From a phage: 64,000 nucleotides of DNA. Where the stretch lies: the sequence record PX880099.1; one strand, given 5' to 3'. The position numbers and the translations under genes were made by a program. The notes beneath the pieces are model-generated. The model ran no database searches. It was not told the origin of the DNA and saw only the letters and a list, made by a program, of their open reading frames with translations. How positions within the stretch are numbered: the stretch's first letter is position 1; the number at the start of each line of letters is the position of its first letter. This document shows, in pieces, positions 50,402 through 62,143 of this stretch.

Positions 50402-50420
50402 ACAATAAAAGGTTAACATC

Positions 50421-50600: not shown

Positions 50601-50619
50601 AAGTTTTAGTCTTATACTA

Positions 50620-50670
50620 TTGACAATGAGTGATAGTATAAGCATAATAACTTTTATCGGGAATACTTCC
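50620..50670 (+). promoter_or_regulatory. promoter plus short 5' stem-loop cassette 7
   Basis: TTGACA-17 bp-CATAAT then GGGAA-tac-TTCCC hairpin. Confidence 0.5.
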
Positions 50671-50697
50671 CACTAACCAAAAAGAGAGAGTGACACC

Positions 50698-51063
50698 ATG
50701 GCTATTAATATCAATGTTTCCGCTTATGCTACCCTGGCTAACACGGCTAAAATTGAATTATCCAGCATTGAGGCGGTGCATATTAGCGCCCGTCGCTGGT
50801 TTCAACAGTCCTACGGTAACACATATTTTTCTTTAATGGTTGACGTTGAGATCGGCGGTAAACTGATCGAGGTGGTTAACGTTCCGTTTCAATATGGCTA
50901 TGGTGATCATTTTGATACCGTCGCCCTGGAAGAATTTAGCAAGGTTATCAACCTTGAGGGCAAGGAATTTTCACGCGGCGCGTATCTTTCCCGTTTTTGC
51001 CGTGACAATGGGATCACTGTATACAGTCATGCAAGCGATGTAAAACGTAAAAAAGATTTATAA
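50698..51063 (+). CDS. hypothetical protein (cassette gene)
   Basis: 121 aa; SD GAGAGAG before ATG. Confidence 0.55.
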   Translation: MAININVSAYATLANTAKIELSSIEAVHISARRWFQQSYGNTYFSLMVDVEIGGKLIEVVNVPFQYGYGDHFDTVALEEFSKVINLEGKEFSRGAYLSRFCRDNGITVYSHASDVKRKKDL

Positions 51064-51069
51064 AAAGCA

Positions 51070-51129
51070 TTGACAGCACGAATAAAAAGAGTAAACTGTA
51101 TTACATAGAGAGCGGGAATAGTTCCCGCC
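51070..51129 (+). promoter_or_regulatory. promoter plus 5' stem-loop cassette 8
   Basis: TTGACA-16 bp-TAAACT-GTATTAC then GCGGGAA-tag-TTCCCGC hairpin. Confidence 0.6.
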
Positions 51130-51152
51130 TCATTCAAAGAGAGATTATCATC

Positions 51153-51392
51153 ATGGCTATTACTAAAACTTACAACGGTCACAAAAACAAAACTCACTGG
51201 AATGTAAGCCTTTGGATTAATAACGACGAATCATTATATCGGTTGGCGAAAGAATTTATCGCCGCTAATACTAATCGTAATGATGCTGCCCGTGATATGA
51301 TGTTATTCCTGGAACAAACTGGACAAGATAAAACTCCAGACGGTTTCAAGTATAGCACTACAGCGATCCGCGCCGCGATGGTTGGAATGTAA
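51153..51392 (+). CDS. hypothetical small protein (cassette gene)
   Basis: 79 aa; SD AGAGAG before ATG. Confidence 0.55.
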   Translation: MAITKTYNGHKNKTHWNVSLWINNDESLYRLAKEFIAANTNRNDAARDMMLFLEQTGQDKTPDGFKYSTTAIRAAMVGM

Positions 51393-51401
51393 TAAAAACA
51401 G

Positions 51402-51461
51402 TTGACAACGTTTAAAATTAGTGTAAGATGTATCACATAGGGCGGGAAGTGGTTTCCCGCC
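51402..51461 (+). promoter_or_regulatory. promoter plus 5' stem-loop cassette 9
   Basis: TTGACA-16 bp-TAAGAT-GTATCAC then GGCGGGAA-gtggt-TTCCCGCC hairpin. Confidence 0.6.
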
Positions 51462-51483
51462 AACAACAGAGAGATTAAAGATT

Positions 51484-51711
51484 ATGGCTATCAATATTGT
51501 TCGCGTATCCGGCACCGTTGGCACTTCCCAGGTTATTGCAGTTGTAACAAACAAAAAGATTAATGATGTATGTGAGATCTTGAATAAGTGGGCTATTGCT
51601 AATTTTGGGGAATATGCAAGCGTCGAGTACATCGAATCCTACCAGGTGCCAACCATCAGCCTGACCGATCTCAACGTTGATCGCCTGTTATGCCTGGATG
51701 AATTAATCTGA
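51484..51711 (+). CDS. hypothetical small protein (cassette gene)
   Basis: 75 aa; SD GAGAG before ATG. Confidence 0.55.
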   Translation: MAINIVRVSGTVGTSQVIAVVTNKKINDVCEILNKWAIANFGEYASVEYIESYQVPTISLTDLNVDRLLCLDELI

Positions 51712-51720
51712 AAAAGATTG

Positions 51721-51777
51721 TTGACACGGGAAAGAAAAAGAGTAAACTGTATTACGTAGGGCGGCAATAGTGCCGCT
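51721..51777 (+). promoter_or_regulatory. promoter plus 5' stem-loop cassette 10
   Basis: TTGACA-16 bp-TAAACT-GTATTAC then GGCGGCA-atag-TGCCGCT hairpin. Confidence 0.6.
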
Positions 51778-51801
51778 CACAACAGAAGAGAGATTATCAC
51801 G

Positions 51802-52014
51802 ATGGCTAATATCCGCACACTGTTAAAAAATGCAAGTCAAGTTTTATTTTCTGATCACGATCATTTTAATAAAGATATTACAGGCGTGAAGAATATCAAA
51901 GATGTAAAAAGTGTTATGGGTATATATTGCAATGTTAAACGTGTTGGAACGTTCGGTGATAAAGTATTGTACCAATCAGGTGATTACAATTTTACTTTGA
52001 CGATTATTTCATAA
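51802..52014 (+). CDS. hypothetical small protein (cassette gene)
   Basis: 70 aa; SD AGAGAG before ATG. Confidence 0.55.
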   Translation: MANIRTLLKNASQVLFSDHDHFNKDITGVKNIKDVKSVMGIYCNVKRVGTFGDKVLYQSGDYNFTLTIIS

Positions 52015-52019
52015 AACGC

Positions 52020-52081
52020 TTGCAATACTGCAAAAATAAAGTAAACTGTATTACATCAAGGCGGCGGAATGGTCCACCGCC
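52020..52081 (+). promoter_or_regulatory. promoter plus 5' stem-loop cassette 11
   Basis: TTGCAA-16 bp-TAAACT-GTATTAC then GGCGGCGGA-atgg-TCCACCGCC hairpin. Confidence 0.55.
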
Positions 52082-52105
52082 TAACAAAGAGAAGAGGAAA
52101 ATATT

Positions 52106-52273
52106 ATGATCACTTTCGCTACCCGTGAAGCCGCTCGCAACGTTGCACGTAAAGTTAACGCCGCCAACCTGGGCGCTACGCTTAAAGCCCCTGTAAAAGA
52201 TGAATCAGGAAAATGGATCTTCCCTGGTCTACGTCATGCTGACAAGTTAGGTACTTTAAGCCTTAAAAAATAA
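52106..52273 (+). CDS. hypothetical small basic protein (55 aa, below ORF-track cutoff)
   Basis: ATG after SD GAAGAGGAAA; N-terminus MITFA shared with 52526-52747. Confidence 0.45.
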   Translation: MITFATREAARNVARKVNAANLGATLKAPVKDESGKWIFPGLRHADKLGTLSLKK

Positions 52274-52276
52274 TCG

Positions 52277-52314
52277 TTGACTTTTCGTTATAGCGCCTTA
52301 TAATGGGCGCTATA
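52277..52314 (+). promoter_or_regulatory. promoter with palindrome straddling the -10 (variant cassette 12)
   Basis: TTGACT-16 bp-TATAAT with inverted repeat TATAGCGCC..GGCGCTATA enclosing the -10 hexamer. Confidence 0.5.
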
Positions 52315-52350
52315 GAGAAGAGAAACCAGTCACAACAGAGAGAAAATATC

Positions 52351-52512
52351 ATGACCAATAAAGAAAAAGCCATCATTAAAGCACATTATCCACATCTAAC
52401 ATTACGTTTTAAAGCCGATGGATCTGTTATGGCCTCCAGTGGGCGCGGGTATGCTTACGGTTTACTTTACACCGCACAACAAGCGCAAGATCATTTAAAC
52501 GCAGTAAAATAA
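52351..52512 (+). CDS. hypothetical small protein (cassette gene)
   Basis: Start set at ATG after AGAGAGAA (MTNKEK); 53 aa. Confidence 0.45.
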   Translation: MTNKEKAIIKAHYPHLTLRFKADGSVMASSGRGYAYGLLYTAQQAQDHLNAVK

Positions 52513-52525
52513 CAAGGAAACCATT

Positions 52526-52747
52526 ATGATCACTTTCGCTATTGTCGCCGTTGTTGCTGGTCAAGTTTACGTAAATGAGACATTTACTACAGAAGACAAG
52601 GCAGCAGGAGATATAACCGCCGTTTACAATGAGTGCAAGGCAGTAGAAAGGATGTTAGCGCCTTGTATGCTAATGAGTGAACGCCAGGACGGAATAACAG
52701 TATTTACTAACATTGGAACAGGGTACCAAATGGTAGTAACAAAATAA
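52526..52747 (+). CDS. hypothetical small protein (second gene of cassette 12 operon)
   Basis: 73 aa; SD AAGGAAA before ATG; hydrophobic N-terminus. Confidence 0.5.
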   Translation: MITFAIVAVVAGQVYVNETFTTEDKAAGDITAVYNECKAVERMLAPCMLMSERQDGITVFTNIGTGYQMVVTK

Positions 52748-52750
52748 AGC

Positions 52751-52808
52751 TTGACACCGATTTAATTTTTAGTAAACTGTTACAGGTAGGGCGGGAATAG
52801 TTCCCGCT
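52751..52808 (+). promoter_or_regulatory. promoter plus 5' stem-loop cassette 13
   Basis: TTGACA-16 bp-TAAACT then GCGGGAA-tag-TTCCCGC hairpin. Confidence 0.6.
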
Positions 52809-52826
52809 CAAAAAGAGAGAAAGACC

Positions 52827-53180
52827 ATGAAAGCACAAAATGCAATTAAAGAGTACATCCTTGCCGCTATCGATTTTAATGATTACGGTATTACAACCGA
52901 AAAAGAGAAGATCGCGGAATTGATGCGCCGTTTTAATTCCGAGTACTGGTACCCTGATAACCAATCACGTTTTAATTATAGTATTGTTAAAGCACTTGCA
53001 TCATGGTTACAAGGTTTGCCATCAGATATCAATATCGCTTTCGAATATTGGGAAATTGATCGCTTGTTAACATCCTGGGGATACATTAAAGAGAATAGCA
53101 GCGATGATAAAATCCAACGAGAAAGGGAAAATTATTGGCTTTATATTGCAGGCGTGATCCTTGCTTGCTCTTATGAATGA
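52827..53180 (+). CDS. hypothetical protein (cassette gene)
   Basis: 117 aa; SD AGAGAGAAAG before ATG. Confidence 0.55.
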   Translation: MKAQNAIKEYILAAIDFNDYGITTEKEKIAELMRRFNSEYWYPDNQSRFNYSIVKALASWLQGLPSDINIAFEYWEIDRLLTSWGYIKENSSDDKIQRERENYWLYIAGVILACSYE

Positions 53181-53186
53181 TAAACC

Positions 53187-53240
53187 TTGACAATTTTACA
53201 AAACAGTTTAAATTAACAATATAGCGGCAATGGTGCCGCT
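53187..53240 (+). promoter_or_regulatory. promoter plus 5' stem-loop cassette 14
   Basis: TTGACA, weak -10, then AGCGGCA-atgg-TGCCGCT hairpin. Confidence 0.5.
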
Positions 53241-53259
53241 CATATGAAGAGGAAACAAA

Positions 53260-53406
53260 ATGAATACATCTAATCGCGCAGAAAAAATTCAATCTTCCAA
53301 GATCCGCAAAGCCTGGAACGAGGAAGTGATCCGCAAAGGCGACAAGCGTAATAAAACAAAGCGCGGGAAGAGTGACAAATATAATTGGATGGATTTAGAG
53401 GATTAA
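53260..53406 (+). CDS. hypothetical small basic protein (48 aa, below ORF-track cutoff)
   Basis: ATG after SD GAAGAGGAAA; Lys/Arg-rich. Confidence 0.4.
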   Translation: MNTSNRAEKIQSSKIRKAWNEEVIRKGDKRNKTKRGKSDKYNWMDLED

Positions 53407-53413
53407 CATAACA

Positions 53414-53441
53414 AGGGCGCATCAAGCGCCCTTTCTTTTTA
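53414..53441 (+). terminator. rho-independent terminator (module AAGGGCGCAYCAAGCGCCCTTT)
   Basis: AGGGCGC-atcaa-GCGCCCT hairpin followed by TTCTTTTT. Confidence 0.7.
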
Positions 53442-53461
53442 CATGTAGAGGATAAACAAAA

Positions 53462-53647
53462 ATGACTTTAAACGAGCTTAAAACAGCCTACAACGCAACA
53501 TTAAAAATAGCCGTGCGTTACCGTGATGCGTATGGTTTTATCGCGCAGGGCGTGATCCTGGGCTTTTCTGACGATGGTTTGATCTATGTTGATGCACATC
53601 ACAACAAGGTTAAACCTGAAAACGTCATTAGCATAAAATATCTTTAA
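53462..53647 (+). CDS. hypothetical small protein
   Basis: 61 aa; SD GAGGA before ATG; no cassette promoter directly upstream. Confidence 0.5.
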   Translation: MTLNELKTAYNATLKIAVRYRDAYGFIAQGVILGFSDDGLIYVDAHHNKVKPENVISIKYL

Positions 53648-53653
53648 AAACGG

Positions 53654-53710
53654 TTGACAGCATAACCAAGTATGATAAGATGTATCACATAGGGCGGGAA
53701 TAGTTCCCGA
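53654..53710 (+). promoter_or_regulatory. promoter plus 5' stem-loop cassette 15
   Basis: TTGACA-16 bp-TAAGAT-GTATCAC then GGGCGGGAA-tag-TTCCCGACC hairpin. Confidence 0.6.
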
Positions 53711-53732
53711 CCACATAAAAGAGAAAAACATT

Positions 53733-53945
53733 ATGACCACTATCACAACAAAACAAGAAAAAATTATTACAGACATTGCCGCAGTAGCCGCTATTGCTAT
53801 TATTGGTACCTACTATGACACCGCGCGACCTTCCTCCTTACATGAGATCGCCGCCGTTGCATCAGTTGGCGTACTGTTTTACGTTGGTAAACGCTATTTA
53901 TCACCAATGATTAACAAGCTGACACCGTGGAAAAATAAAGGTTGA
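53733..53945 (+). CDS. small membrane protein (cassette gene)
   Basis: 70 aa with two hydrophobic segments; SD AGAGAAAAA before ATG. Confidence 0.5.
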   Translation: MTTITTKQEKIITDIAAVAAIAIIGTYYDTARPSSLHEIAAVASVGVLFYVGKRYLSPMINKLTPWKNKG

Positions 53946-53997
53946 TCCTGTTTTATATTGTGTTATAGTTATCGTGTAGGGCGGCAATGGTGCCGCG
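53942..53997 (+). promoter_or_regulatory. promoter plus 5' stem-loop cassette 16
   Basis: TTGATC-16 bp-TATAGT then GGCGGCA-atgg-TGCCGCG hairpin. Confidence 0.55.
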
Positions 53998-54016
53998 CCC
54001 CTTTGAGGATGCAATC

Positions 54017-54301
54017 ATGCGTAAAGCTAACACCGTGCTAATGTTTTCCCTGATTAATAATGCCGCTTACTTGTCCAACATGACGCAGGAGGGTAACACA
54101 TTAACGGCAACATTCACCAATAAGCTTGACCGAGTGATCATAATCTCACTGAAAACAGTTAGTAAAGGCTTTTACTCGTTAGCTTATCATTGTATCACTG
54201 ACACCGACGAGACAAGCCAGGACTATAGCGCCCCTTTCCCTGAATCAATGGCACGGGAGATCATCGCCGCCGTTGTAAATGATGGTTTGTTTACTGCATA
54301 A
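54017..54301 (+). CDS. hypothetical protein (cassette gene)
   Basis: Start set at ATG after SD GAGGA (MRKANTVL); 94 aa. Confidence 0.5.
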   Translation: MRKANTVLMFSLINNAAYLSNMTQEGNTLTATFTNKLDRVIIISLKTVSKGFYSLAYHCITDTDETSQDYSAPFPESMAREIIAAVVNDGLFTA

Positions 54302-54318
54302 AATAATTCAGAAAAGGC

Positions 54319-54378
54319 TTGCAATAATTTTCAGACCGTGTATATTTAATTCATAGGGCGGCGGGAATAGTTTCCTAA
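54319..54378 (+). promoter_or_regulatory. promoter plus degenerate 5' stem-loop cassette 17
   Basis: TTGCAA-16 bp-TATATT then partially decayed GGCGGGAATAGTTTCC element. Confidence 0.4.
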
Positions 54379-54398
54379 GCAAACGAGAGGATTACACG

Positions 54399-54518
54399 AT
54401 GAGCAAGTATACAGTAGAATACACGGTAGAAAATCCGGCAGTATCCGAAGGTAAAAAGATGACATTTGCCATCAGTATAATCGCTTTCGTTATCACTATC
54501 TTATCAATCATCTTATAA
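54399..54518 (+). CDS. possible 39-aa membrane peptide
   Basis: ATG after GAGAGG; hydrophobic C-terminal half. Confidence 0.3.
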   Translation: MSKYTVEYTVENPAVSEGKKMTFAISIIAFVITILSIIL

Positions 54519-54528
54519 GGTGCGTACT

Positions 54529-54690
54529 ATGAAAACAACAGACATTATCAAAGAGATCGCCCTTGCCGCTGACGTTGAGATCGAGGAAGTGATCGCGCTC
54601 AACCTTACAGAAAACGATCTGCGCAACTATGAAGCGGAAAGCGTGAAAGCAAGCGGCGCGGTCCTGGCATATAATCCGGCTAACAAGTAA
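54529..54690 (+). CDS. hypothetical small acidic protein (53 aa, below ORF-track cutoff)
   Basis: ATG after SD AAGGTG. Confidence 0.4.
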   Translation: MKTTDIIKEIALAADVEIEEVIALNLTENDLRNYEAESVKASGAVLAYNPANK

Positions 54691-54699
54691 GGGGATAAC

Positions 54700-54810
54700 A
54701 TGAATCCAAAAGATATGCAAGCATGGAAAGGGTACGACGATCTAAGCGCCTTGCGCAATAAGTCAAGCCGTAACCTTAGACGGTTGGAAGCAAAGAAAAA
54801 GAAAAAATAG
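54700..54810 (+). CDS. possible 36-aa basic peptide
   Basis: ATG after AAGGGG; ends in a Lys run. Confidence 0.3.
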   Translation: MNPKDMQAWKGYDDLSALRNKSSRNLRRLEAKKKKK

Positions 54811-54811
54811 T

Positions 54812-54868
54812 TTGACAAGTCCGCCTAGTCTGATAATATGTATCTTGTAGGGCGGCAATGGTGCCGCT
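54812..54868 (+). promoter_or_regulatory. promoter plus 5' stem-loop cassette 18
   Basis: TTGACA-16 bp-TAATAT then GGCGGCA-atgg-TGCCGCT hairpin. Confidence 0.6.
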
Positions 54869-54888
54869 CACAAGAAGAGAGAAAAATC

Positions 54889-55173
54889 ATGAAAATCACA
54901 AAAAGCCTAACTAATTATGCAGCACGTCGCGGATTATGTTTAACCGTTGAAAACTTAGGGAAAGAAGACTTTTTGTGTTTTTGGGAGCTTGAAAATGATT
55001 GCGAGTGGATGTTTTCTTATTCTATCTGCGAAGATCAAAACGGTTGTTTGTTAACCTGGCGCGGTAATATCTATTTACCGGAAGAAATTAAAGAAGAGTT
55101 ACCAGGTACGATCATGACAGAGAGACAGCTTAAGGAAGTGATCAATTTTGTAGGGCAAAACATTAAAAAATAA
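54889..55173 (+). CDS. hypothetical protein (cassette gene)
   Basis: Start set at ATG after AGAGAGAAAAA (MKITKSL); 94 aa. Confidence 0.5.
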   Translation: MKITKSLTNYAARRGLCLTVENLGKEDFLCFWELENDCEWMFSYSICEDQNGCLLTWRGNIYLPEEIKEELPGTIMTERQLKEVINFVGQNIKK

Positions 55174-55174
55174 T

Positions 55175-55236
55175 TTGACAGTAGGCAAACAACGTAGTAA
55201 AGTTTATTACATAGAGCGGCGGAATGGTCCACCGCT
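55175..55236 (+). promoter_or_regulatory. promoter plus 5' stem-loop cassette 19
   Basis: TTGACA-17 bp-TAAAGT-TTATTAC then AGCGGCGGA-atgg-TCCACCGCT hairpin. Confidence 0.6.
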
Positions 55237-55258
55237 CACAACAGAAGAGAAACAAATC

Positions 55259-55429
55259 ATGATCCCGACTATGTTTTATGTATCGCGCAAAGGTCACAAT
55301 ATTTTTTGGTCTGAAGATTTAAATGAAGCTATGACGTTTGCCCGTGATCGTGTTGCTATCGGTGGCGTTAATATCACCGTGACCGATGAAAACGGCATTG
55401 AATACTATAACGGCGATGATGAAGAGTAA
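55259..55429 (+). CDS. hypothetical small protein (cassette gene)
   Basis: Start set at ATG after AGAGAAACAA (MIPTMFYV); 56 aa. Confidence 0.45.
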   Translation: MIPTMFYVSRKGHNIFWSEDLNEAMTFARDRVAIGGVNITVTDENGIEYYNGDDEE

Positions 55430-55436
55430 TCAACAA

Positions 55437-55455
55437 GGCGGGATTAATTCCGCCT
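55437..55455 (+). other. promoter-less intercistronic stem-loop GGCGGGA-ttaa-TTCCGCC
   Basis: Hairpin right after the stop at 55429 with no -35/-10 upstream and no T-run. Confidence 0.4.
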
Positions 55456-55473
55456 ATATTAAAGGGTAATACA

Positions 55474-55611
55474 ATGAAAACTTTCAACGCAACAGCCTCG
55501 ACAATTGGTTATATTATTACAGTGCAAGCCGTGGATCTGGTAGCAGCAGCAAACAAGATTAAAAAGATGATCCCGCCAGGTAGTGAATTTTCCGTTTGGG
55601 AAGTAAAATAA
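55474..55611 (+). CDS. hypothetical small protein (45 aa, below ORF-track cutoff)
   Basis: ATG after AAAGGG. Confidence 0.35.
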   Translation: MKTFNATASTIGYIITVQAVDLVAAANKIKKMIPPGSEFSVWEVK

Positions 55612-55614
55612 ACC

Positions 55615-55676
55615 TTGACAATAATTTGTTATCTGGTAAAGTGTATTACGTAGGGCGGGGCAATGGTGCAACGCCC
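55615..55676 (+). promoter_or_regulatory. promoter plus 5' stem-loop cassette 20
   Basis: TTGACA-16 bp-TAAAGT-GTATTAC then GGGCGGGGCA-atgg-TGCAACGCCC hairpin with internal mismatch. Confidence 0.55.
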
Positions 55677-55694
55677 ATTAATGAGGGTAGAATC

Positions 55695-55799
55695 ATGTTA
55701 GAGAAAATTTTCACGGTTGTAATAGTGGGCCTGGCGTTATCGGTTGGAGTGGTTGCAACTATGGCTAACATGATCCTATCTTCCCACGGTATCGGTTAA
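55695..55799 (+). CDS. possible 34-aa membrane peptide
   Basis: ATG after SD GAGGGTAG; single hydrophobic helix. Confidence 0.3.
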   Translation: MLEKIFTVVIVGLALSVGVVATMANMILSSHGIG

Positions 55800-55809
55800 G
55801 GTGAAACAA

Positions 55810-55971
55810 ATGATCACGAACAAAACAGGCAAAACGGAATTTTTACGCGGCTTACAAGTTGGTAAGCCTGAGATCTGGCATTGCACGAAGTCCGCGCATA
55901 ATGAAATGAAAGATTTCACCGCTACTTTACAACGTGTTAAAATATCTATTACGCAGAAAAAGCCTTATTAG
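55810..55971 (+). CDS. hypothetical small basic protein (53 aa, below ORF-track cutoff)
   Basis: ATG after AAGGTGAAACAA. Confidence 0.4.
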   Translation: MITNKTGKTEFLRGLQVGKPEIWHCTKSAHNEMKDFTATLQRVKISITQKKPY

Positions 55972-56020
55972 TAGTAGAAAACGAGATCCCGCAAACCATT
56001 ATTATTGTCGAGCGTACAGC

Positions 56021-56407
56021 ATGAAAACAGAAATCATTAACGAAATCATCAACGGCTATAAAGAAGCCTTTATTTTTGCTGAATCAGCAAGGGATCATGA
56101 AGGTAATTTTATAGATGACATGACTGATTATGATTTTTCAGATCAAGCCCATCAACGGATCGCCCAGGATGTAACAGCCTTTATTAATGCTAATCTTGCC
56201 GCTATCTCTGAGGCAATGAGCGACGGCGCAACAGCCAACCAGATCGGGAATGATTTACATTTTACCCGTAACGGTCACGGCGTAGGATTTTGGGATCGCC
56301 CTGAAATATACACCACTAACACGGCGAACCGCCTAACAAATGCAGCTAAGTTTATGCCGAACGTGTCGGCTTACATTGGTGAAGATAATTTGATTTATAT
56401 TGAATAA
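56021..56407 (+). CDS. hypothetical protein
   Basis: Start set at MKTEIINEI; weak SD, possibly translationally coupled; 128 aa. Confidence 0.45.
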   Translation: MKTEIINEIINGYKEAFIFAESARDHEGNFIDDMTDYDFSDQAHQRIAQDVTAFINANLAAISEAMSDGATANQIGNDLHFTRNGHGVGFWDRPEIYTTNTANRLTNAAKFMPNVSAYIGEDNLIYIE

Positions 56408-56413
56408 AAAGTA

Positions 56414-56470
56414 TTGACACAGATCGCCAGTGTGCTAATATTTACCACGTAGGGCGGCAATGGTGCCGCC
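56414..56470 (+). promoter_or_regulatory. promoter plus 5' stem-loop cassette 21
   Basis: TTGACA-16 bp-TAATAT-TTACCAC then GGCGGCA-atgg-TGCCGCC perfect hairpin. Confidence 0.65.
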
Positions 56471-56488
56471 GATAATGAGGAAAATAAA

Positions 56489-56788
56489 ATGGAAACTATC
56501 GCTATTGTTACCGTAGAAAAACTGGTTGTTGGTGATGTGTTCGCGTTAATGGTGCCTAACAGCAGCAAACTGGGCGCTTATGAAGTGATGGACCATAAAA
56601 ATGAATCATTTGGCGACGGTTGCACAATGGCGGTAAAATCCTTAAAGGATGGAATCATCCGCCAGGCTAACTGGCACAAAGGGAATCAAGTCGGTTTAAT
56701 ATCAGCTAATTTCTTGCCAGAAGAGCAAACGTTAGACCAACTATCAGGCGGTAAGACGTTAGCCGAACTACTGGAAACAGCGATCTAA
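56489..56788 (+). CDS. hypothetical protein (cassette gene)
   Basis: 99 aa; SD GAGGAAAATAAA before ATG. Confidence 0.55.
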   Translation: METIAIVTVEKLVVGDVFALMVPNSSKLGAYEVMDHKNESFGDGCTMAVKSLKDGIIRQANWHKGNQVGLISANFLPEEQTLDQLSGGKTLAELLETAI

Positions 56789-56802
56789 TCAACAAAGGGG
56801 CG
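56787..56802 (+). other. promoter-less stem-loop GGGGCG-gcaa-CGCCCC
   Basis: Perfect hairpin overlapping the stop at 56788; near-identical copy at 57079-57094. Confidence 0.45.
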
Positions 56803-56832
56803 GCAACGCCCCACATCAGAAAGGAAAAGATT

Positions 56833-57069
56833 ATGAGTATTGCAACAGTATTAAACGCCGTTAAAACCGCTGAATCATCCGGCTTGCATGTTGAGCTTAT
56901 AGATCAACCAGGTGGCGATCTCCTTGTCCAGGTTTACCCGCCGAAAGTAGGGGATGATTATTATTGGGCTTATTCTGATACGTTCGAACAAGTAGACACG
57001 AAAGCGATCACGGCTTTTATTTTAAAAGCTATTGAAGAAAATAACTTTCATCATAACATCAATCAATAA
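56833..57069 (+). CDS. hypothetical small acidic protein
   Basis: 78 aa; SD AAAGGAAAAGA before ATG. Confidence 0.55.
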   Translation: MSIATVLNAVKTAESSGLHVELIDQPGGDLLVQVYPPKVGDDYYWAYSDTFEQVDTKAITAFILKAIEENNFHHNINQ

Positions 57070-57078
57070 ACCATAAGC

Positions 57079-57094
57079 GGGGCGGTAACGCCCC
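57079..57094 (+). other. promoter-less stem-loop GGGGCG-gtaa-CGCCCC
   Basis: Second copy of the 56787 hairpin, immediately after the stop at 57069. Confidence 0.45.
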
Positions 57095-57123
57095 ATTAAA
57101 CGCAATAGGAAGAGGATAGACGC

Positions 57124-57414
57124 ATGAAAAACATGATCGCAGTAGTTGCCCTAGTTGTTGGTATTAACGCGCCTGTACTGGCTAATGAGTTGTCAGAATC
57201 CATCACGCTAACCGATATCAACGCAATAAACCGGATCGGCGTTAATTATCGCCTATGCCTTGCCGCTAAAACTTTCCAGGACGGCACGACAGAATACCAC
57301 GGATTCGAGGGTATCCGCTGCGGTGAGCTTGCACGCGACCTTAAAGAAGATCCAGACCTTGAGGCCATACCGATGACCGTAAACGGTAAAGCTTACGTAA
57401 ACCGCCAACAATGA
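57124..57414 (+). CDS. secreted small protein (signal peptide)
   Basis: MKNMIAVVALVVGINAPVLA signal peptide; SD AGGAAGAGGA before ATG. Confidence 0.55.
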   Translation: MKNMIAVVALVVGINAPVLANELSESITLTDINAINRIGVNYRLCLAAKTFQDGTTEYHGFEGIRCGELARDLKEDPDLEAIPMTVNGKAYVNRQQ

Positions 57415-57545
57415 GAAAGGTAATCATCACAATGGGGATCGTAGTAGCAACGCTGGCGCTTATCCCCTTCATGGTTGAACATGTGCTGATCAGTGTTGTC
57501 CTTGTAGTCAGTGACCTATTGGAAACGGTTGGCACCTGGTTTTAA
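57411..57545 (+). CDS. possible 44-aa membrane peptide
   Basis: ATGA overlap with upstream stop; two hydrophobic stretches. Confidence 0.3.
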   Translation: MRKVIITMGIVVATLALIPFMVEHVLISVVLVVSDLLETVGTWF

Positions 57546-57550
57546 GATAA

Positions 57551-57580
57551 TAAATAGGGCTTGCAATAGTCCTATTTTTT
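57551..57580 (+). terminator. terminator-like hairpin with T6 run
   Basis: TAGGGC-ttgcaata-GTCCTA imperfect stem followed by TTTTTTG. Confidence 0.4.
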
Positions 57581-57620
57581 GTTATACTTATTGAACGGGC
57601 GGCACCTGGGAGCAGGTGAA
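57561..57620 (+). promoter_or_regulatory. promoter followed by CACCTG-ggag-CAGGTG palindrome (variant element)
   Basis: TTGCAA-16 bp-TATACT; then GGGCGG and a perfect CACCTG/CAGGTG inverted repeat; about 100 nt ORF-free leader follows. Confidence 0.4.
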
Positions 57621-57719
57621 GATAATCACCGGAAGATCCCGCTATATATCGATAGCTAATACCTATCAAACAACAAAACATCAAAGAGATAAACTATCAA
57701 ATCTTTACAATCCTACCTA

Positions 57720-57778
57720 TTGACACCGGATCACGCTTACATTATTATTTATCACGTAGGGCGGGAATGTTTCCCGCC
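57720..57778 (+). promoter_or_regulatory. promoter plus 5' stem-loop cassette 22
   Basis: TTGACA, AT-rich -10 region, TTATCAC, then GGCGGGAA-tgt-TTCCCGCC perfect hairpin. Confidence 0.6.
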
Positions 57779-57796
57779 TGATTTAGGAGTCATATC

Positions 57797-58030
57797 ATGA
57801 TCGAACAAATTAAAAGCACTAAACCAAATGTTAACGGTAATGTTTCTCACTTTATCGGGGATAATGAAAGAGGTACACCGTACGCCGCCGTAACCGTTCA
57901 ACCGAACGGGGATTATTGGTTTACCGTGTACGGATCTTACTCTTTTGGACGTTCGGCACATGATAAGATCTTGCAAGTGGTTAAGCCTACTGGGAAGAAT
58001 ATCACAGCAGAAAAATTTTATAAAAAATAG
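57797..58030 (+). CDS. hypothetical small protein (cassette gene)
   Basis: 77 aa; SD AGGAG before ATG. Confidence 0.55.
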   Translation: MIEQIKSTKPNVNGNVSHFIGDNERGTPYAAVTVQPNGDYWFTVYGSYSFGRSAHDKILQVVKPTGKNITAEKFYKK

Positions 58031-58032
58031 CT

Positions 58033-58091
58033 TGCTTTATATACCCTGTTAACTTATAGTTATTGCGTAGGGCGAGCAATACAGCAAGCCC
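58033..58091 (+). promoter_or_regulatory. promoter plus degenerate 5' stem-loop cassette 23
   Basis: TTGCTT-16 bp-TTATAG/TATAGT then GGGCGAGCAATACAGCAAGCCC imperfect inverted repeat. Confidence 0.45.
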
Positions 58092-58108
58092 ACAAAGAGG
58101 AAAATAAA

Positions 58109-58477
58109 ATGAGCAAATCAGCAATTAAAGCACTTGAAAAAGCACAAGAAGTGATCGCAACGTCAACCACTGGCGCAAAGGTTAATCTCGTTTGTTATCT
58201 GACAGATGAAACTATCCGTAAAAATTGGCGTAATGCTGATTTACTGGCTTGCTTATTGATTAATAGTGTCGCTAATGCTTTCCAGTGTGAAACAGCCGAG
58301 AGCCTGGAGGAAAACTTGTTTGATAATATGGATCAAGCCATTGAAACCTATATACAATCAAACCTGGATAGCTGGAACAGTAAAACATGGCCCGACAATT
58401 TACGCGATACAACTGATCAACTGATCCGCCTTGCCCTGATGGTTGAACGCGATAACGTTTACAACAGCACAAAGTAA
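58109..58477 (+). CDS. hypothetical protein (cassette gene)
   Basis: 122 aa; SD AAGAGGAAAA before ATG. Confidence 0.55.
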   Translation: MSKSAIKALEKAQEVIATSTTGAKVNLVCYLTDETIRKNWRNADLLACLLINSVANAFQCETAESLEENLFDNMDQAIETYIQSNLDSWNSKTWPDNLRDTTDQLIRLALMVERDNVYNSTK

Positions 58478-58486
58478 GATTATACA

Positions 58487-58510
58487 AGGGCGCACTAAGC
58501 GCCCTTTAAC
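58487..58510 (+). terminator. terminator-like hairpin (same module as 53414 and 59050)
   Basis: AGGGCGC-actaa-GCGCCCT followed by TTTAAC, weak T tail. Confidence 0.45.
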
Positions 58511-58536
58511 GTAAAGAAATGTAAATAATGCGCTAT

Positions 58537-58571
58537 CCCCTATTGACAGGGGATCGGCGTTATATTATATT
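58537..58571 (+). promoter_or_regulatory. promoter with palindrome around the -35 (variant cassette 24, no 5' hairpin)
   Basis: TCCCCT-aTTGACA-GGGGA inverted repeat enclosing -35 TTGACA; 17 bp; TATATT. Confidence 0.5.
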
Positions 58572-58616
58572 TAACTTACTGGCAGCAAACAACGAAACGA
58601 AACAAAGGACAACATC

Positions 58617-59036
58617 ATGAACATTAAATCAAATAATCCAGCTTACTCCTTCGATAACGCTTTTTGTCACGGTAGCGCCGCCAAAGGCTTCGAAATCGAT
58701 GGTAAATTGGTTATCGTGAACGTTGACGGGGAAGAGGTTGCAGTGTATCCGGTAAACGATGTTAAAAGCCGTTTACAATGCCGCATGGATGTTACCGCAT
58801 ATCAGCTTGATCCGGTCCGTGTAGTTGCCTTGGTGTTAGAGGAAGAGATCAAAGCAATGCATCACAGTAATAAGTTTATTGGTGACGCGCAGGATAATAT
58901 GAACGTTTGCCGCCATAAAGTTAATGAAGCATTGAAAGAATGCGGTTTTAAGGATCTGATGATTAAACGTGATGAAAAATTCCGCTTTCGTAATGACCTG
59001 GCAAACCGGATCTACTCAATCTATGAAGCGTTATAA
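58617..59036 (+). CDS. hypothetical protein (last gene of array)
   Basis: 139 aa; SD AAAGGA before ATG; followed by strong terminator. Confidence 0.55.
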   Translation: MNIKSNNPAYSFDNAFCHGSAAKGFEIDGKLVIVNVDGEEVAVYPVNDVKSRLQCRMDVTAYQLDPVRVVALVLEEEIKAMHHSNKFIGDAQDNMNVCRHKVNEALKECGFKDLMIKRDEKFRFRNDLANRIYSIYEAL

Positions 59037-59049
59037 TTGACAACAAAAC

Positions 59050-59078
59050 AAGGGCGCACCAAGCGCCCTTTCTTTTTG
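59050..59078 (+). terminator. rho-independent terminator (module AAGGGCGCAYCAAGCGCCCTTT)
   Basis: AGGGCGC-accaa-GCGCCCT hairpin followed by TTCTTTTT. Confidence 0.75.
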
Positions 59079-60039
59079 CCCGAACAATATTGATAGCTTT
59101 CGCCTATGAAAAACCGACACAGAACAAAACTGAATAAATCGCGGTATCGAGCTAATCAACCAGCAAACGAATAACCATACCTCCCAGGGTTACAGGCTGT
59201 TAGAGAGCCATTTAGAGCGGTTAAAATCGATCAACAACCAACAACAAACCATCAAAAACACCCTTTTACCTCCTTTCTAGTGCAATGATAACCATTATCA
59301 TCTACCCATGATTATCTATGCAATATAAGCGCATAATTATAATGTTGATAATAGTTCGCAACAACTAACCAACAAACAACATAAAACAATAAGCAAACTA
59401 ATCATAATCAAAGGAATAATAGCAAGATGATTGATAACGACAAACAATCAAACCATGATGAATACTAAGCAAGATAACGATAACACGACAAAACAACCAA
59501 CTAACGAACAATAACAAACGAAACCATTAAAATAATAACTATTAGCAAAATAGTGCATGAATGAAATCATTACAAAACGAATCATTCATAGAGTCATCAT
59601 TAGCACGCTATGCCGGACACATAGCGAGCTAATAATAAGCCAACTACACCCCAACAATCATAACCATCGGTGATGGTTATTTCTTGTTACTGCGTAGCTT
59701 GCAATAATTGCAAGCGTAATGACGCTTACACTTATTGCGCTGGCTTATTATTAGCATTATATGTAATTACCAAGATCATAACATTAGCGCAATAACAATA
59801 ATCATTGTGGTAATTACGTAAGGAAACAATTAGCATGGCAATAATTATGGGGGCAATGGGAGGATGATTATCATCATTCCGATACATTGCACACTATGCA
59901 CATAATAGAATAAAAAGCAATAATTTTGGGGGCGAAATGTTACCGCCACAGGCGGGAATGTTGAGCAAGTTCTCTTAAACGTAAATAAAATCAGAATAAT
60001 CTTGATTTATTTTAGTTTTTATGTTAATAAACGTTTAAA

Positions 60040-60054
60040 TAATAATCATTCTCA
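60040..60054. promoter_or_regulatory. Fur-box-like palindrome
   Basis: TaATAATcATTcTCA, two mismatches to 7-1-7 consensus TGATAATnATTATCA. Confidence 0.3.
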
Positions 60055-60215
60055 TATAAATAATAGTCTGCTTGTCATGAGCGGGATTAGTTGACAATGT
60101 TCCGTCATATGATGAGGTTGCCAAGCCATTGATAAATAAGTGTTTGTGTGATTTATAATCAGGTGGCCCACCTTGTCGCTATGTTGGCATGAGCCTTGCA
60201 TAAGTCATTGAATAC

Positions 60216-60236
60216 GAATGATAATTATTCTCATTC
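60216..60236. promoter_or_regulatory. Fur-box-like palindrome (best match in window)
   Basis: TGATAATtATTcTCA, one mismatch to consensus; embedded in larger palindrome CGAATGA..TCATTCG. Confidence 0.35.
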
Positions 60237-60576
60237 GCATGATATTTGGGAATTGTCGCTGCGTGGACCTGACGGCCCGAAAATTCGCGTTAAGCACTTC
60301 TTACGTATGCACCATGATTTTTGCCATATCATATTGATTCTATTAGATATTCTTGCCATGATTGCCATGAAACAGGGTGTCCCGAAATAATCTCTCCCCG
60401 TAGATATTTTGGGTTACTTTTTATACAAGAGTGGGGTGTCAAAAATAATCGGTATATATGGGATAATTGATAGGAATCCCCTATGATAATTCGATTGTAA
60501 TTCCCTAAGATTGATCGTATGATGTTGGTGATTAATGATTGCCATGAAAGATGGCTAACGATGAGAGGAGATTATC

Positions 60577-60951
60577 ATGCAAGAGAGTAAAAATGTTCCG
60601 TTGAGCAGTGCAACATTGCTTCGCTTCTATAAAGCATGGATTGCCAACTATCCTGCAATGAATCGCACAACGAGTGGCTTATGTGGTTGTCTGGTAGATT
60701 ATGTAGATGATTTTGTTGGTGAGACAACTAGAGAAGAAGATAGAAGATGGCGTGATCATTTGTTGGACCGTTTGAAATATGAAATGAGGAAACAATTTAC
60801 ATGTGCAGGGTTGGACTACAATCTTCCGTTCAATGCAGATTGCATGGATTACCTTTCAGAGTGTATAAACTTGGCGTGTCATACCAACACGTTACGTCTT
60901 CAATGGGTGAAAGACAGAATTGAAGATGCAAATAATGCTTGCATTGAATAA
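60577..60951 (+). CDS. hypothetical protein
   Basis: 124 aa; SD GAGAGGAGA before ATG; first gene after the ORF-free region. Confidence 0.55.
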   Translation: MQESKNVPLSSATLLRFYKAWIANYPAMNRTTSGLCGCLVDYVDDFVGETTREEDRRWRDHLLDRLKYEMRKQFTCAGLDYNLPFNADCMDYLSECINLACHTNTLRLQWVKDRIEDANNACIE

Positions 60952-61000
60952 AGATGTTTGTATAATGGATGACATAACAGATAGCCAATGAGGAGATGAA

Positions 61001-61210
61001 ATGAAGAATTTGAAAACTGTCACAATGTTCTTGACTAATCCTACACGTGTGCAAGCACTGGCTAAAGCCAGCCGTGTAGCTGTAGAATTCCAAAACTTTA
61101 AGCCGTCCGTTGTGACAGGCAGTGAAACGTGTGTTATCGATTTCATTAACGAATACTTCCGAGGGAATCCGGTTGGTCGTTACTTTATTAAGGGTCTGAA
61201 GGATGCATAG
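61001..61210 (+). CDS. hypothetical small protein
   Basis: 69 aa; SD GAGGAGA before ATG. Confidence 0.5.
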   Translation: MKNLKTVTMFLTNPTRVQALAKASRVAVEFQNFKPSVVTGSETCVIDFINEYFRGNPVGRYFIKGLKDA

Positions 61211-61433
61211 CATGAAACGCATGAAAATTCGTATTGAGAATGATGGTGGTTATAAAGGACTTACCCGTGCAAAATTCCCACTTGTGTTGGAAGCTACGGT
61301 GGAATACAGTGGGCTTGCTCATGTGCGATTCTCGAAGATGATGGAAGTGCAGGAATGGTTTTGGGACGAGATAGATGCACGAGAAGGGGAAGATTATGTT
61401 TTCTTTCCTCACGAATATGAAATTGTTTATTAA
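61203..61433 (+). CDS. hypothetical small protein
   Basis: 76 aa; 8-nt overlap with upstream gene. Confidence 0.5.
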   Translation: MHSMKRMKIRIENDGGYKGLTRAKFPLVLEATVEYSGLAHVRFSKMMEVQEWFWDEIDAREGEDYVFFPHEYEIVY

Positions 61434-61436
61434 AGG

Positions 61437-61685
61437 TTGTATGCAATGATCACACCACAACAAAATGAAGCAGCAATGGATCTTCTTGATAGTTTGTATT
61501 TCGATAATTGGTACTCTGAATGTGAATGGATGAATATGCAAACTCTGAAAGAGAAGACAAAAGCGTTGATTACAGTAGATCAATTTCTTGCAGAGACGGA
61601 AAGAATGAATTATGATATGGCATCTCGCGCACGACGCGTTTCCATTTTCAATAAAATGTTAGCATTATGGGGAGGTAGAAAATGA
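61437..61685 (+). CDS. hypothetical small protein
   Basis: 82 aa; start may instead be the internal ATG (MITPQQ). Confidence 0.45.
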   Translation: MYAMITPQQNEAAMDLLDSLYFDNWYSECEWMNMQTLKEKTKALITVDQFLAETERMNYDMASRARRVSIFNKMLALWGGRK

Positions 61686-62143
61686 GACAATTCACTATAC
61701 TGGCAGCTTATGTGCAATGTGTTCACGATTATGTTAGTGCTCATACAGGTTTGCTGGAAGTTACCAGTAAAATTGAAGGTAATATGGGTACTGTCTGTGT
61801 GCAACATACTTTATCCAATGTGCCGTTTAAAGTGTTCACTGTTGTAGCTGCCGATTACAATCGTGTAGATGTGCGTTTCTTGGATCATAATTTTCGTAAC
61901 GCACTAGATAATATCGAAGATTATCTTCCCGTGAAACCTTTGTCATTTCCACCAAGTCGTGCAAATAATGTAGTGACAAATCTTAATGAAAGAAATGTGG
62001 CTATGCACAAAAAAGTCCGTCAACTGAAAATGCTGATGGAAATGCAAGAAGAGATTGAAAAAGAACTGAAAGAAGATTTTGGTATGCTTCCAAAAGACGC
62101 TTTGAAATGGTATGATGAACTAGGAGGAGAAAGTTATGAATAA
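61682..62143 (+). CDS. hypothetical protein
   Basis: 153 aa; ATGA overlap; SD GGAGG before ATG. Confidence 0.5.
   Translation: MRQFTILAAYVQCVHDYVSAHTGLLEVTSKIEGNMGTVCVQHTLSNVPFKVFTVVAADYNRVDVRFLDHNFRNALDNIEDYLPVKPLSFPPSRANNVVTNLNERNVAMHKKVRQLKMLMEMQEEIEKELKEDFGMLPKDALKWYDELGGESYE

Follow-up and report, generated by a model that had tools for sequence, protein, structure and literature searches.

Promoter-less GC-rich stem-loops between early cistrons of a phAPEC8-like coliphage appear to be relatives of a transcribed early leader hairpin

The closest described counterparts of the hairpins analysed here are the promoter-early stem-loop (PeSL) cassettes of the T4-type phages RB49/phi1, PST and nt-1 (PMC2839356, PMC4122927) and the galE exo-block hairpin of the E. 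coli gal operon, an 8-bp stem with a 4-nt loop and no U-tract that halts 3′-to-5′ exonucleases and thereby gives the upstream cistron its differential stability (PMC11925234). Our hairpins, H1, H2 and H3, lie between early genes of a Phapecoctavirus, in a 64,000-nt stretch of sequence record PX880099.1 (the window), which is of the phAPEC8-like coliphage type and 99% identical to coliphage ESCO13. As with PeSL, they belong to intergenic cassettes in a plastic, ORFan-rich early region, in which a σ70 promoter, a G/C-rich stem-loop, an SD and an ATG follow one another and small ORFans are flanked by copies of the element. Through exchange between copies, mapped to the interior of the loop in PeSL, the ORFan is lost, gained or swapped and a chimeric element stays behind; such chimeras were found here in relatives lacking one small gene, g13, and allele replacement in phage phiWec190. 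In contrast to PeSL, H1–H3 have no promoter of their own, the σ70 promoter being present at ~17 sibling cassettes. The leader stem-loop of these siblings lies 3′ of the −10 box and is transcribed, whereas PeSL stem-loops mostly lie between or over the promoter boxes; PeSL stem-loops have also been shown to terminate transcription, whereas H1–H3 are without a U-tract. The phage lineage differs too (Stephanstirmvirinae/Vequintavirinae), and sequence homology to PeSL is not expected. H1–H3 resemble the galE hairpin in being short, devoid of a U-tract and located within polycistronic mRNA, but the galE hairpin lies ~120 nt into the next gene whereas H1–H3 lie in the gap, and its function was demonstrated by mutation and 3′ RACE, whereas we infer that of H1–H3.

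Other hairpins offer partial parallels. The ompA and T7 gene 10 leaders carry 5′-terminal stem-loops that stabilise the message; the sibling leader hairpins likewise lie near the transcript 5′ end and H1 copies that element, but H1–H3 are transcript-internal and could assume a 5′-end role only after an upstream endonucleolytic cut. The boxB of lambda nut combines a short GC stem with a GNRA-type pentaloop in an early transcript and occurs once per operon. H2 and H3 share the short GC stem and GNRA-type loop in an early transcript, but the loop is a tetraloop, boxA is absent, an N-like protein was not recognised, and the hairpins precede individual cistrons. REP/BIME elements and the T4 C(UUCG)G hairpins are said to have been described as intercistronic elements by Newbury et al. 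in 1987, the former as stabilisers, and by Tuerk et al. in 1988, respectively. Like both, H1–H3 are very stable and intercistronic, often with special tetraloops, and in those systems the upstream mRNA is protected. Unlike REP/BIME, H1–H3 are linked to the downstream gene and show neither the REP consensus nor an Rfam match (Rfam 15 covariance-model scan of 47000–64000 at E ≤ 1, zero matches). Hairpins with UUCG loops also occur at 12051–12142 and 25268–25309, on the gene strand.

The genes and signals around H1–H3 are arranged as follows.

55175–55203, + strand: σ70-type promoter of the g08-H1-g09 transcript, with its own leader hairpin at 55214–55237
55259–55429, + strand: g08, the gene 5′ of H1
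55427–55437, + strand: 5′ flank of H1, stop codon included, TAATCAACAAG; recurs at 56786–56796 before H2
55436–55455, + strand: H1, AGGCGGGA-uuaa-UUCCGCCU, 8 bp with one G·U; promoter-less copy of the early leader element
55474–55611, + strand: g09, 45 codons, the gene served by H1
56414–56441, + strand: σ70-type promoter of the g12-H2-g13-H3-g14 transcript, with its own leader hairpin at 56453–56470
56489–56788, + strand: g12, the gene 5′ of H2
56797–56812, + strand: H2, GGGGCG-GCAA-CGCCCC, GNRA tetraloop; left copy of the 16-nt repeat around g13
56833–57069, + strand: g13, a 78-codon ORFan cassette between H2 and H3 whose presence varies among relatives
57079–57094, + strand: H3, GGGGCG-GUAA-CGCCCC, GNRA tetraloop; right copy of the 16-nt repeat around g13
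57124–57414, + strand: g14, 96 codons, signal-peptide-like, served by H3 and conserved in rV5 (ORF171); carried by roughly 170 genomes
57552–57577, + strand: terminator-like hairpin of the intrinsic type, with a T-run, closing the H2/H3 operon

Pfam and PHROGs searches with ten neighbouring proteins assigned no function except to one T7 gp1.1-family protein. The promoters at 55175 and 56414 upstream and the terminator at 57552 downstream place the hairpins within sense-transcribed operons, as the preliminary description of this DNA had proposed. Its statement that upstream −35/−10 sequences and a T-run are missing also held: scanning of the + strand returned no σ70-like site in the gaps 55430–55473, 56789–56832 and 57070–57123, and no T-run in any of the three, the tails reading AUAUUAAAG, ACAUCAGAA and AUUAAACGC. 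The same description spoke of three perfect GC-rich hairpins after stop codons. All three are present, but H1 is imperfect, with a single wobble that is G·U on the + strand and equals an A·C mismatch on the − strand; the ESCO13 copy of H1 is perfectly paired. The position given there for H2, 56787, falls on the stop codon, and the stem begins at 56797. The stop codon is TAA in each case, 6, 8 and 9 nt before H1, H2 and H3, and the ATG follows the hairpins by 18, 20 and 29 nt, respectively. In a 41-nt context the fold energies were −12.3, −14.1 and −14.1 kcal/mol (−11.3 to −12.6 kcal/mol for the isolated hairpins), with z-scores against dinucleotide shuffles of −3.5, −3.5 and −2.1, the last of which makes H3 marginal when taken singly.

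None of H1–H3 is a promoter, an intrinsic terminator or an RNase III site. With stems of 6–8 bp they have the GC-rich stem-loop of a terminator, but a U-rich tract 0–2 nt from the stem is absent on the + strand at all three (3, 1 and 2 U in the 8 nt 3′ of H1, H2 and H3), and for lack of this tract they are not intrinsic terminators. Attenuation by intrinsic termination, among the functions initially suggested, is thus not supported. RNase III processing, also suggested, fared no better: the 6–8-bp stems show no extended pairing in the 41-nt folds and fall far under about two helical turns, and RNase III sites of the T7 early type require a largely double-stranded stem of ~20 bp or more.

The hairpins are real and non-random. 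A count of perfect 6-bp stems with at least five G–C pairs and loops of 3–8 nt gave 30 distinct GC-rich stems in the window versus 1.1 ± 1.0 (maximum 4) in 30 dinucleotide shuffles, a ~27-fold excess. Among 79 unique hairpins of the window and its relatives we found 14 internal G·U wobbles versus 0 A·C, the antisense equivalent, and the non-leader tetraloops of the window were GNRA or UUCG in 7 of 11 cases when read in sense and in 0 of 11 when read in antisense (binomial ~1e-7 at a 4.7% chance per loop, by our own arithmetic), both counts taking in related copies that are not fully independent. Because the wobbles and the GNRA/UUCG loops appear in the sense orientation only, the hairpins would act on sense-strand RNA, and the comparison supports selection on hairpin structure at the RNA level on that strand. 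Loop substitutions in H2 and H3 are confined to the free N of GNRA (GCAA/GUAA), and the basal pair of H3 passes from G-C through A·C to A-U across relatives. A formal covariation test of the H2/H3 lineage yielded one compensatory pair, which was equalled or exceeded in 120 of 500 shuffles and was not significant.

The origin of the hairpins could be approached through the leaders of the sibling cassettes. Some 17 early promoters of the window are followed by a leader hairpin that starts a few nt past the predicted start site and ends 17–24 nt (~20 nt) before the ATG, a spacing to which the 18, 20 and 29 nt of H1–H3 compare; members of this family share the flank ACGUAGG, a stem, a nearly invariant AAUGGU loop and an SD. 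We built a covariance model from 17 post-promoter leaders, leaving out H1–H3; since RNAalifold on the MAFFT leader alignment gave a consensus of only 3 pairs, the leader structure was entered by hand. The model aligned end to end with H1 (55429–55476, 33.0 bits, window-wide E 1e-4) and placed its 5′ flank, TAATCAACAAG, on the conserved leader flank AUCACGUAGG; it matched H2 weakly (13.8 bits, window-wide E 3.2) and gave no match at H3. H1 is thus a genuine copy of the leader hairpin. A chimera of a terminator 5′ half and a leader 3′ half, considered for the shared flank TAATCAACAA, was rejected because the model aligns this flank with the leader's own 5′ flank.

Comparison with relatives, taken from the GenBank phage collection (IMG/VR protein-guided locus searches gave 3 loci each), shows that each hairpin belongs to the gene 3′ of it and moves together with that gene; the three are copies of the early leader hairpin, or relatives of it, that lack a promoter. 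In phage nimi the orthologue of g09 is preceded by a promoter and a homologous leader hairpin, and in nimi, phiWec190, L005 and phi92 the orthologues of g09 or g13 follow a promoter and a leader hairpin, inside which the homology sets in. In phi92 and L005 the 3′ arm of H2 and the sequence downstream of it have their orthologous counterpart in a promoter-leader hairpin, and 3′ of g08 relatives carry either of two hairpins, according to the downstream gene. At the H3 position rV5-like phages have AGGCGGU-uacc-GCCGCCU before the same gene, g14. The linkage of hairpin and downstream gene thus recurs in rV5, nimi, phiWec190, phi92 and L005.

The reading we prefer, with middling confidence, is that H1–H3 are sense-strand stem-loops at the 5′ edge of early-gene cassettes and act as passive decay barriers. 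An early cassette would run from a σ70 promoter, where present, through the leader flank, the GC-rich hairpin, ~10 nt, the SD and the ATG to a small ORF; with the promoter part missing at the three junctions, the hairpin comes to lie directly behind the preceding stop and would be transcribed inside a polycistronic mRNA. There it could stall 3′-to-5′ exonucleases entering from downstream cleavage or termination sites and so protect the upstream cistron, and after a cut just 5′ of the hairpin the downstream cistron would begin with a paired 5′ terminus. Cistron-specific stability within a shuffled operon would be the outcome, and any role as a recombination site would be a by-product of short GC-rich repeats. 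Slowing of message decay, with each cistron given its own stability, is probably the most likely function. From in vitro work, six G–C pairs may be marginal against PNPase. We found no transcript-end or half-life mapping for rV5-like or phAPEC8-like phages in the literature.

Alternatively, the internal hairpins may be neutral scars of promoter cassettes, inert and tolerated, left behind when recombination removed the promoter or the upstream ORF overwrote it. The complete leader copy without a promoter at H1 would fit such an origin, as would the weak covariation statistics of the H2/H3 lineage. Several natural phages do without an intact H3, which also weighs against the barrier reading: SKA64, L004 and L012 have lost the 5′ arm and the loop, only a 5′ arm is left in phi92, the L005 copy is degenerate, and in WPEC2 the closing pair is disrupted. 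Predicted SD accessibility is no better with the native hairpins than with shuffled ones; the unpaired probability of the SD/AUG was 0.65, 0.82 and 0.51 at H1, H2 and H3 compared to 0.61, 0.79 and 0.54 after shuffling of the hairpin, and 17–70% of shuffled hairpins equalled the native one. By the same comparison we rejected a separate candidate function, that of an insulator keeping the SD unpaired. Against inert scars speak the preservation of GNRA through the loop changes at H2 and H3, the compensatory path of the H3 basal pair, the C-to-T change in H1 that still pairs as G·U, and the presence of a hairpin with a different stem before g14 in two subfamilies. On balance we regard this explanation as unlikely, though by no means negligible.

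Genome comparison further indicates that cassettes have repeatedly been joined and separated by recombination inside the hairpins, with g13 gained or lost between H2 and H3, in an early region whose gene content is mosaic between relatives. H2 and H3 constitute a 16-nt direct repeat bracketing g13, and in at least 10 related phages g13 is absent and a single chimeric H2/H3 hairpin takes its place, giving the order g12, one chimeric hairpin, g14 in ETEC-TG, anhysbys, ZCKP1, vB_Ec-G1, KKP_3264 and others; recombination therefore took place within the stem-loop. Judged by their flanks, the g13-less phages are interspersed among the g13-bearing ones in a non-monophyletic pattern. phiWec190 carries a g13 allele of 48% identity between the same hairpins, and in phAPEC8 a deletion has fused two hairpins. 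All of this, together with the PeSL precedent of crossovers mapped to the loop (PMC2839356), would also be expected if the hairpins were selected as recombination modules, with evolvability as the main benefit and with PeSL-like excision of ORFans, possibly as mini-circles, and insertion. For such exchange, however, the repeat suffices, and the hairpin, the GNRA loop and the sense-strand wobbles are not needed; 16 nt is short for RecA-type exchange, and viable junctions are confined to the 44–54-nt gaps anyway, so that the coincidence with hairpins is weakly diagnostic. We consider selection for recombination as the main benefit to be distinctly improbable.

A broader possibility, which we likewise hold to be a slim prospect, is that leader and promoter-less hairpins form a cassette-adaptor system of rV5-like and phAPEC8-like phages, in which ORFans such as g13 are actively mobilised, by PeSL-like mini-circles or a phage-encoded recombinase, and the AAUGGU loop is read by a factor. 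The hairpin would then be both expression adaptor and recombination site, and would allow integron-like shuffling in a lytic phage. The annotation of phAPEC8 includes a putative site-specific recombinase, phAPEC8_0049.

Weak attenuation or pausing that reduces read-through to the downstream cistrons, as reported for PeSL, is very doubtful. A PeSL stem-loop lowered lacZ expression as much as rrnB T1 (PMC2839356), and the GC-rich H1–H3 come directly after stops, as true terminators do. The few U residues past their stems argue against it, and termination at the related leader hairpins would cut short the very transcripts that contain them.

Even less credible is a sequence-specific RNA-binding protein that would use H1–H3 for boxB/N-like antitermination or as a translational operator, although H2 and H3 have near-identical 6-bp stems and GNRA loops reminiscent of lambda boxB, and the AAUGGU loop of the leader hairpins is nearly invariant. 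A protein target had been among the initial proposals, and the evidence turned against it: a search for boxA (YGCTCTTWA) matched only at 25990, away from the hairpins, and the neighbouring proteins include no recognised RNA-binding family. An identical 19-mer is present in the same stop-hairpin-SD setting in three unrelated phage contigs, the loop of H1 differs, and rV5-like phages have another stem sequence. Intrinsic termination of antisense (minus-strand) transcription, for which the scan flagged all three hairpins on the − strand (tails UUUGUUGAUU, UGUUGAUUAC and CUUAUGGUUU), was rejected on gene layout and strand-specific features and is extremely improbable: the 41–64 kb block holds no minus-strand genes and the plus-strand block extends ~20 kb further in phAPEC8, the H1 wobble becomes a mismatch and the GNRA loops become UUGC/UUAC on the minus strand, the U-tracts are not continuous, the leader's own flank accounts for the A-rich sequence 5′ of the hairpin, and the scan background is high (22 found versus 11.4 expected).

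T4-type phages and E. coli operons already offer examples of such a device; what is new is the phage group, the biology is ordinary, and the finding of the hairpins opens no new kind of mechanism. The finding accounts for the build of a highly plastic early region in widely isolated coliphages that are therapeutic candidates: the region may be described as a chain of self-contained units, each with its leader hairpin, SD and small ORF, which stand behind their own promoter or are chained behind another gene and are gained or lost at the hairpins. The three junctions also provide concrete constructs for gauging the effect of short, U-less hairpins on cistron-specific mRNA stability in infection. 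An annotation is corrected as well: the phAPEC8 record gives the conserved 20-mer as 'promoter determined with PHIRE', but a leader stem-loop that is transcribed is the likelier identity.

Over the 2.6 kb around the three intercistronic hairpins (H1, H2 and H3), identity was 99.0% to Escherichia phage ESCO13 and 92–98% to dozens of genomes of Phapecoctavirus (Stephanstirmvirinae), phAPEC8 among them, with weaker matches in Justusliebigvirus (phi92) and Vequintavirus (rV5). Long ORFs divided the window into three strand blocks (1–5.6 kb, +; 5.7–40.7 kb, −; 41.3–64 kb, +), and 48–59 kb formed an early region of small ORFs, most of them preceded by a near-consensus σ70 promoter, TTGACA-16/17-TAnnnT. 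H1 lies within the g08–g09 operon and H2 and H3 within the g12–g14 operon, as expected of the intra-operon elements proposed in the preliminary description; no neighboring protein has a known function.

Operons and hairpins under study
Operon 1, +: promoter 55175, g08, H1, g09
Operon 2, +: promoter 56414, g12, H2, g13, H3, g14, small ORF, terminator 57552
55436–55455, +: H1, stem-loop AGGCGGGA-uuaa-UUCCGCCU
56797–56812, +: H2, stem-loop GGGGCG-GCAA-CGCCCC
57079–57094, +: H3, stem-loop GGGGCG-GUAA-CGCCCC

The distance from the TAA stop codon to the hairpin was 6 nt for H1, 8 nt for H2 and 9 nt for H3, confirming their placement shortly behind stops, and a further 18, 20 and 29 nt, respectively, separated the hairpins from the following ATG. 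The H2 stem began at 56797, the position first assigned to it (56787) being the stop codon. The stems, initially called perfect, were so in H2 and H3, but H1 contains one G·U wobble, paired on the + strand only, at a site where ESCO13 has C. Folded in 41-nt context, H1 reached −12.3 kcal/mol (z-score −3.5), H2 −14.1 kcal/mol (−3.5) and H3 −14.1 kcal/mol (−2.1). The reported lack of upstream promoters and T-runs was borne out by a scan that found no + strand promoter-like site in the three gaps and by 8-nt tails with only 3, 1 and 2 U residues. The window contained 30 hairpins of this class against 1.1 ± 1.0 in dinucleotide shuffles, which is far above chance. An intergenic census of the window sorted the strong hairpins into three classes.

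Hairpin classes and leader coordinates
Class 1, true terminators: T-run present; for example 53413, 57552, 59050
Class 2, leader hairpins: behind a promoter, ending 17–24 nt before ATG
Class 3, plain hairpins: neither promoter nor T-run; H1–H3, 58487 and several in the − strand block with UUCG or GAAA loops
48205–57799, +: leader region; for example 50374–50423, 54842–54891, 56444–56491
26282–26332, −: further leader

In the third class, the hairpin AAGGGCGC-acuaa-GCGCCCUU at 58487–58505 (+) has the stem of the true terminators 53413 and 59050 and the tail UAACG, and is possibly a weak or decayed terminator directly upstream of promoter 58543. Intercistronic hairpins with UUCG, GAAA or UUCU loops on the gene strand also lay between middle or late − strand genes (8176–8223, 12051–12142, 18580–18678, 25268–25309); some have no U-run, so the plain class extends beyond the early region.

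The leaders stand behind about 17–20 σ70 early promoters and combine a covarying GC stem with a nearly invariant AAUGGU loop, which may have a specific partner. Across 17 aligned copies the element runs from ATCACGTAGG through the stem to the loop AATGGT, and the leader 20-mer labeled "promoter determined with PHIRE" in the phAPEC8 GenBank record appears to be a stem-loop of the transcribed 5′ leader. A covariance model of the 17 leaders (R2), with structure set by hand and H1–H3 left out, was run unfiltered over the whole window. It aligned H1 end to end at 33.0 bits (E about 1e-4), flank AUCA-ACAAGG included; H2 scored 13.8 bits, short of window-wide significance, and H3 had no match in this run. 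The TAATCAACAA motif is common to H1 and H2 because, as R2 places it, it belongs to this leader flank.

Several sequence features point to a structure formed in sense-strand RNA. An A·C mismatch on the gene strand equals G·U on the opposite strand, so wobble counts distinguish the two. The sample comprised all unique hairpins with ≥6 bp of perfect core from the window (gene orientation) and from a set of related loci. Among internal mismatches that had Watson-Crick pairs on both sides, 14 were G·U-type and 0 A·C-type, and GNRA or UUCG accounted for 7/11 non-leader tetraloops of the window on the gene strand against 0/11 on the opposite one, many hairpin copies in these counts being related to one another. 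Relatives exchanged only GCAA and GUAA in the H2/H3 loops, the free position of GNRA, and the H3 basal pair, G-C in the window, was A·C in phAPEC8, UP17 and ECO340P2 and A-U in PNJ1809-36 and tuntematon. A formal count in the H2/H3 lineage alone gave one compensatory pair, equaled by 120 of 500 shuffles. A DNA operator or antisense element does not fit the G·U-only wobbles, sense-read tetraloops and GNRA-keeping loop changes. H1–H3 are transcribed sense-strand stem-loops without promoter, U-tract or RNase III-length stem.

Orthologous comparisons assigned the hairpin to the downstream cassette, as its 5′ portion, and ruled out that it is appended to the 3′ end of the gene upstream. A promoter and homologous leader hairpin precede g09 in nimi, phiWec190 and L005, a related locus, and a promoter with leader hairpin precedes g13 in phi92 and L005, where the loop end, the 3′ arm and the sequence behind it match those of H2. 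In phiWec190 another gene lies upstream of H2 and the g13 allele is 48% identical, with hairpin and SD retained. The hairpin AGGCGGU-uacc-GCCGCCU precedes the g14 orthologue of rV5, nimi, isim, V18 and Pr121LW at the distance of H3, behind an upstream gene different from that of the window, and the 3′ side of g08 carries two alternative hairpins, each linked to its own downstream gene.

The 78-codon ORFan g13 is flanked by H2 and H3 as a 16-nt direct repeat whose single mismatch lies in the loop. ETEC-TG has the order g12, one hairpin, g14, and its hairpin is chimeric, with the 5′ flank and GCAA loop of H2 and the 3′ flank of H3. The same order was found in anhysbys, ZCKP1, vB_Ec-G1, KKP_3264 (a Justusliebigvirus) and at least five further records, and other phages gave a two-piece match including g13; across Phapecoctavirus and Justusliebigvirus, the gene (56833–57069; related loci L024, L028–L031) is polymorphic for presence or absence. 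Over the short flanks compared (200 nt before the junction, 186 nt after), g13-less phages formed no cluster on either side and were not monophyletic: the g14 head of ZCKP1 was identical to that of the g13-bearing AV125, and the g12 tail of vB_Ec-G1 was nearest to ESCO13 and the window. This non-clustering suggests that g13 was gained or lost repeatedly. Other junctions also fall at hairpins: the alternative H1 of phAPEC8 is fused straight onto the next leader hairpin, H3 has lost its 5′ arm and loop in SKA64, L004 and L012, and only its 5′ arm survives in phi92, joined to another gene. H1–H3 mark cassette boundaries and are recombination junctions.

The closest known system is the promoter-early stem-loop (PeSL) cassette of T4-type phages, which comprises a σ70 early promoter, a G/C stem-loop and SD-ATG, borders ORFans in plastic regions, and recombines, as mapped in the loop, to yield indels and mini-circles (PMC2839356, PMC4122927). 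H1–H3 share this architecture and evolutionary behavior, but occur in another phage lineage, without a promoter, and here the stem-loop lies within the transcribed leader. We found no description of such hairpins in the literature on rV5-like or phAPEC8-like phages. The hairpins first noted are real, and their preliminary interpretation was partly right.

By analogy, we infer that H1–H3 may act as passive decay barriers. A direct precedent is the E. coli galE hairpin, which has an 8-bp stem and a 4-nt loop but no terminator tail. It stops exonucleases entering from ends made by Rho termination or RNase E cleavage and thereby determines where the upstream message ends and how stable it is (PMC11925234). 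After a cut upstream of the hairpin, the downstream cistron would begin with a paired 5′ end, such as sibling leader hairpins presumably give to primary transcripts. The ompA and T7 gene 10 leaders are the basis for this comparison to paired-5′-end protection. A stem that begins 7–10 nt past the stop codon lies approximately at the leading edge of the terminating ribosome and, on general grounds, may therefore keep its fold while the mRNA is translated. Two points speak against a strong requirement: H3 has been lost in several phages, and six G-C pairs may block PNPase weakly. SD insulation by the hairpin was unsupported when folding was repeated with shuffled hairpins in place of the native ones.

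The main alternative to decay barriers is that H1–H3 are neutral scars of cassettes that lost their promoter; however, the GNRA-keeping H2/H3 loop changes, the pair-preserving changes and the fact that a hairpin is kept before g14 across subfamilies count against pure neutrality. Recombination as the selected function would leave the RNA-specific features unexplained. Attenuation, also raised initially, draws on PeSL stem-loops that terminated in a reporter assay, but lacks a U-tract here, and for RNase III processing the stems are too short. An RNA-binding-protein target was likewise suggested earlier; a boxB-like one lacks both boxA and a recognizable partner protein, and the exact 19-mer AAGGGGCGGYAACGCCCCA occurs between stop codon and SD-ATG in three IMG/VR contigs of apparently unrelated phages, suggesting a generic stable hairpin.

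Occurrences of the 19-mer in IMG/VR contigs
L032, 5051–5069
L034, 7259–7277
L036, 1389–1407

Antisense termination, for which a terminator scan flagged all three hairpins on the − strand, is at odds with a gene layout offering no convergent block for about 20 kb and with the sense-side specificity of wobble and loops.

Elsewhere in the early region, 53260–53406 (+) encodes a strongly basic 48-aa protein of the T7 gene 1.1 family (PF08200, E 5e-13). An A5 run at ~55957–55961, A6 in ESCO13 and phAPEC8, cuts the phAPEC8_0010 homologue by frameshift from 71 to 53 codons and could be a real variant or a sequencing error. Downstream of the bidirectional terminator 59050–59070, an AT-rich, ORF-poor stretch of 1.1–1.5 kb (59070–60195, to about 60570) contained neither a tRNA nor an Rfam match, and its repeats were all short; the genome map published for rV5 has a "non-coding" box as well.
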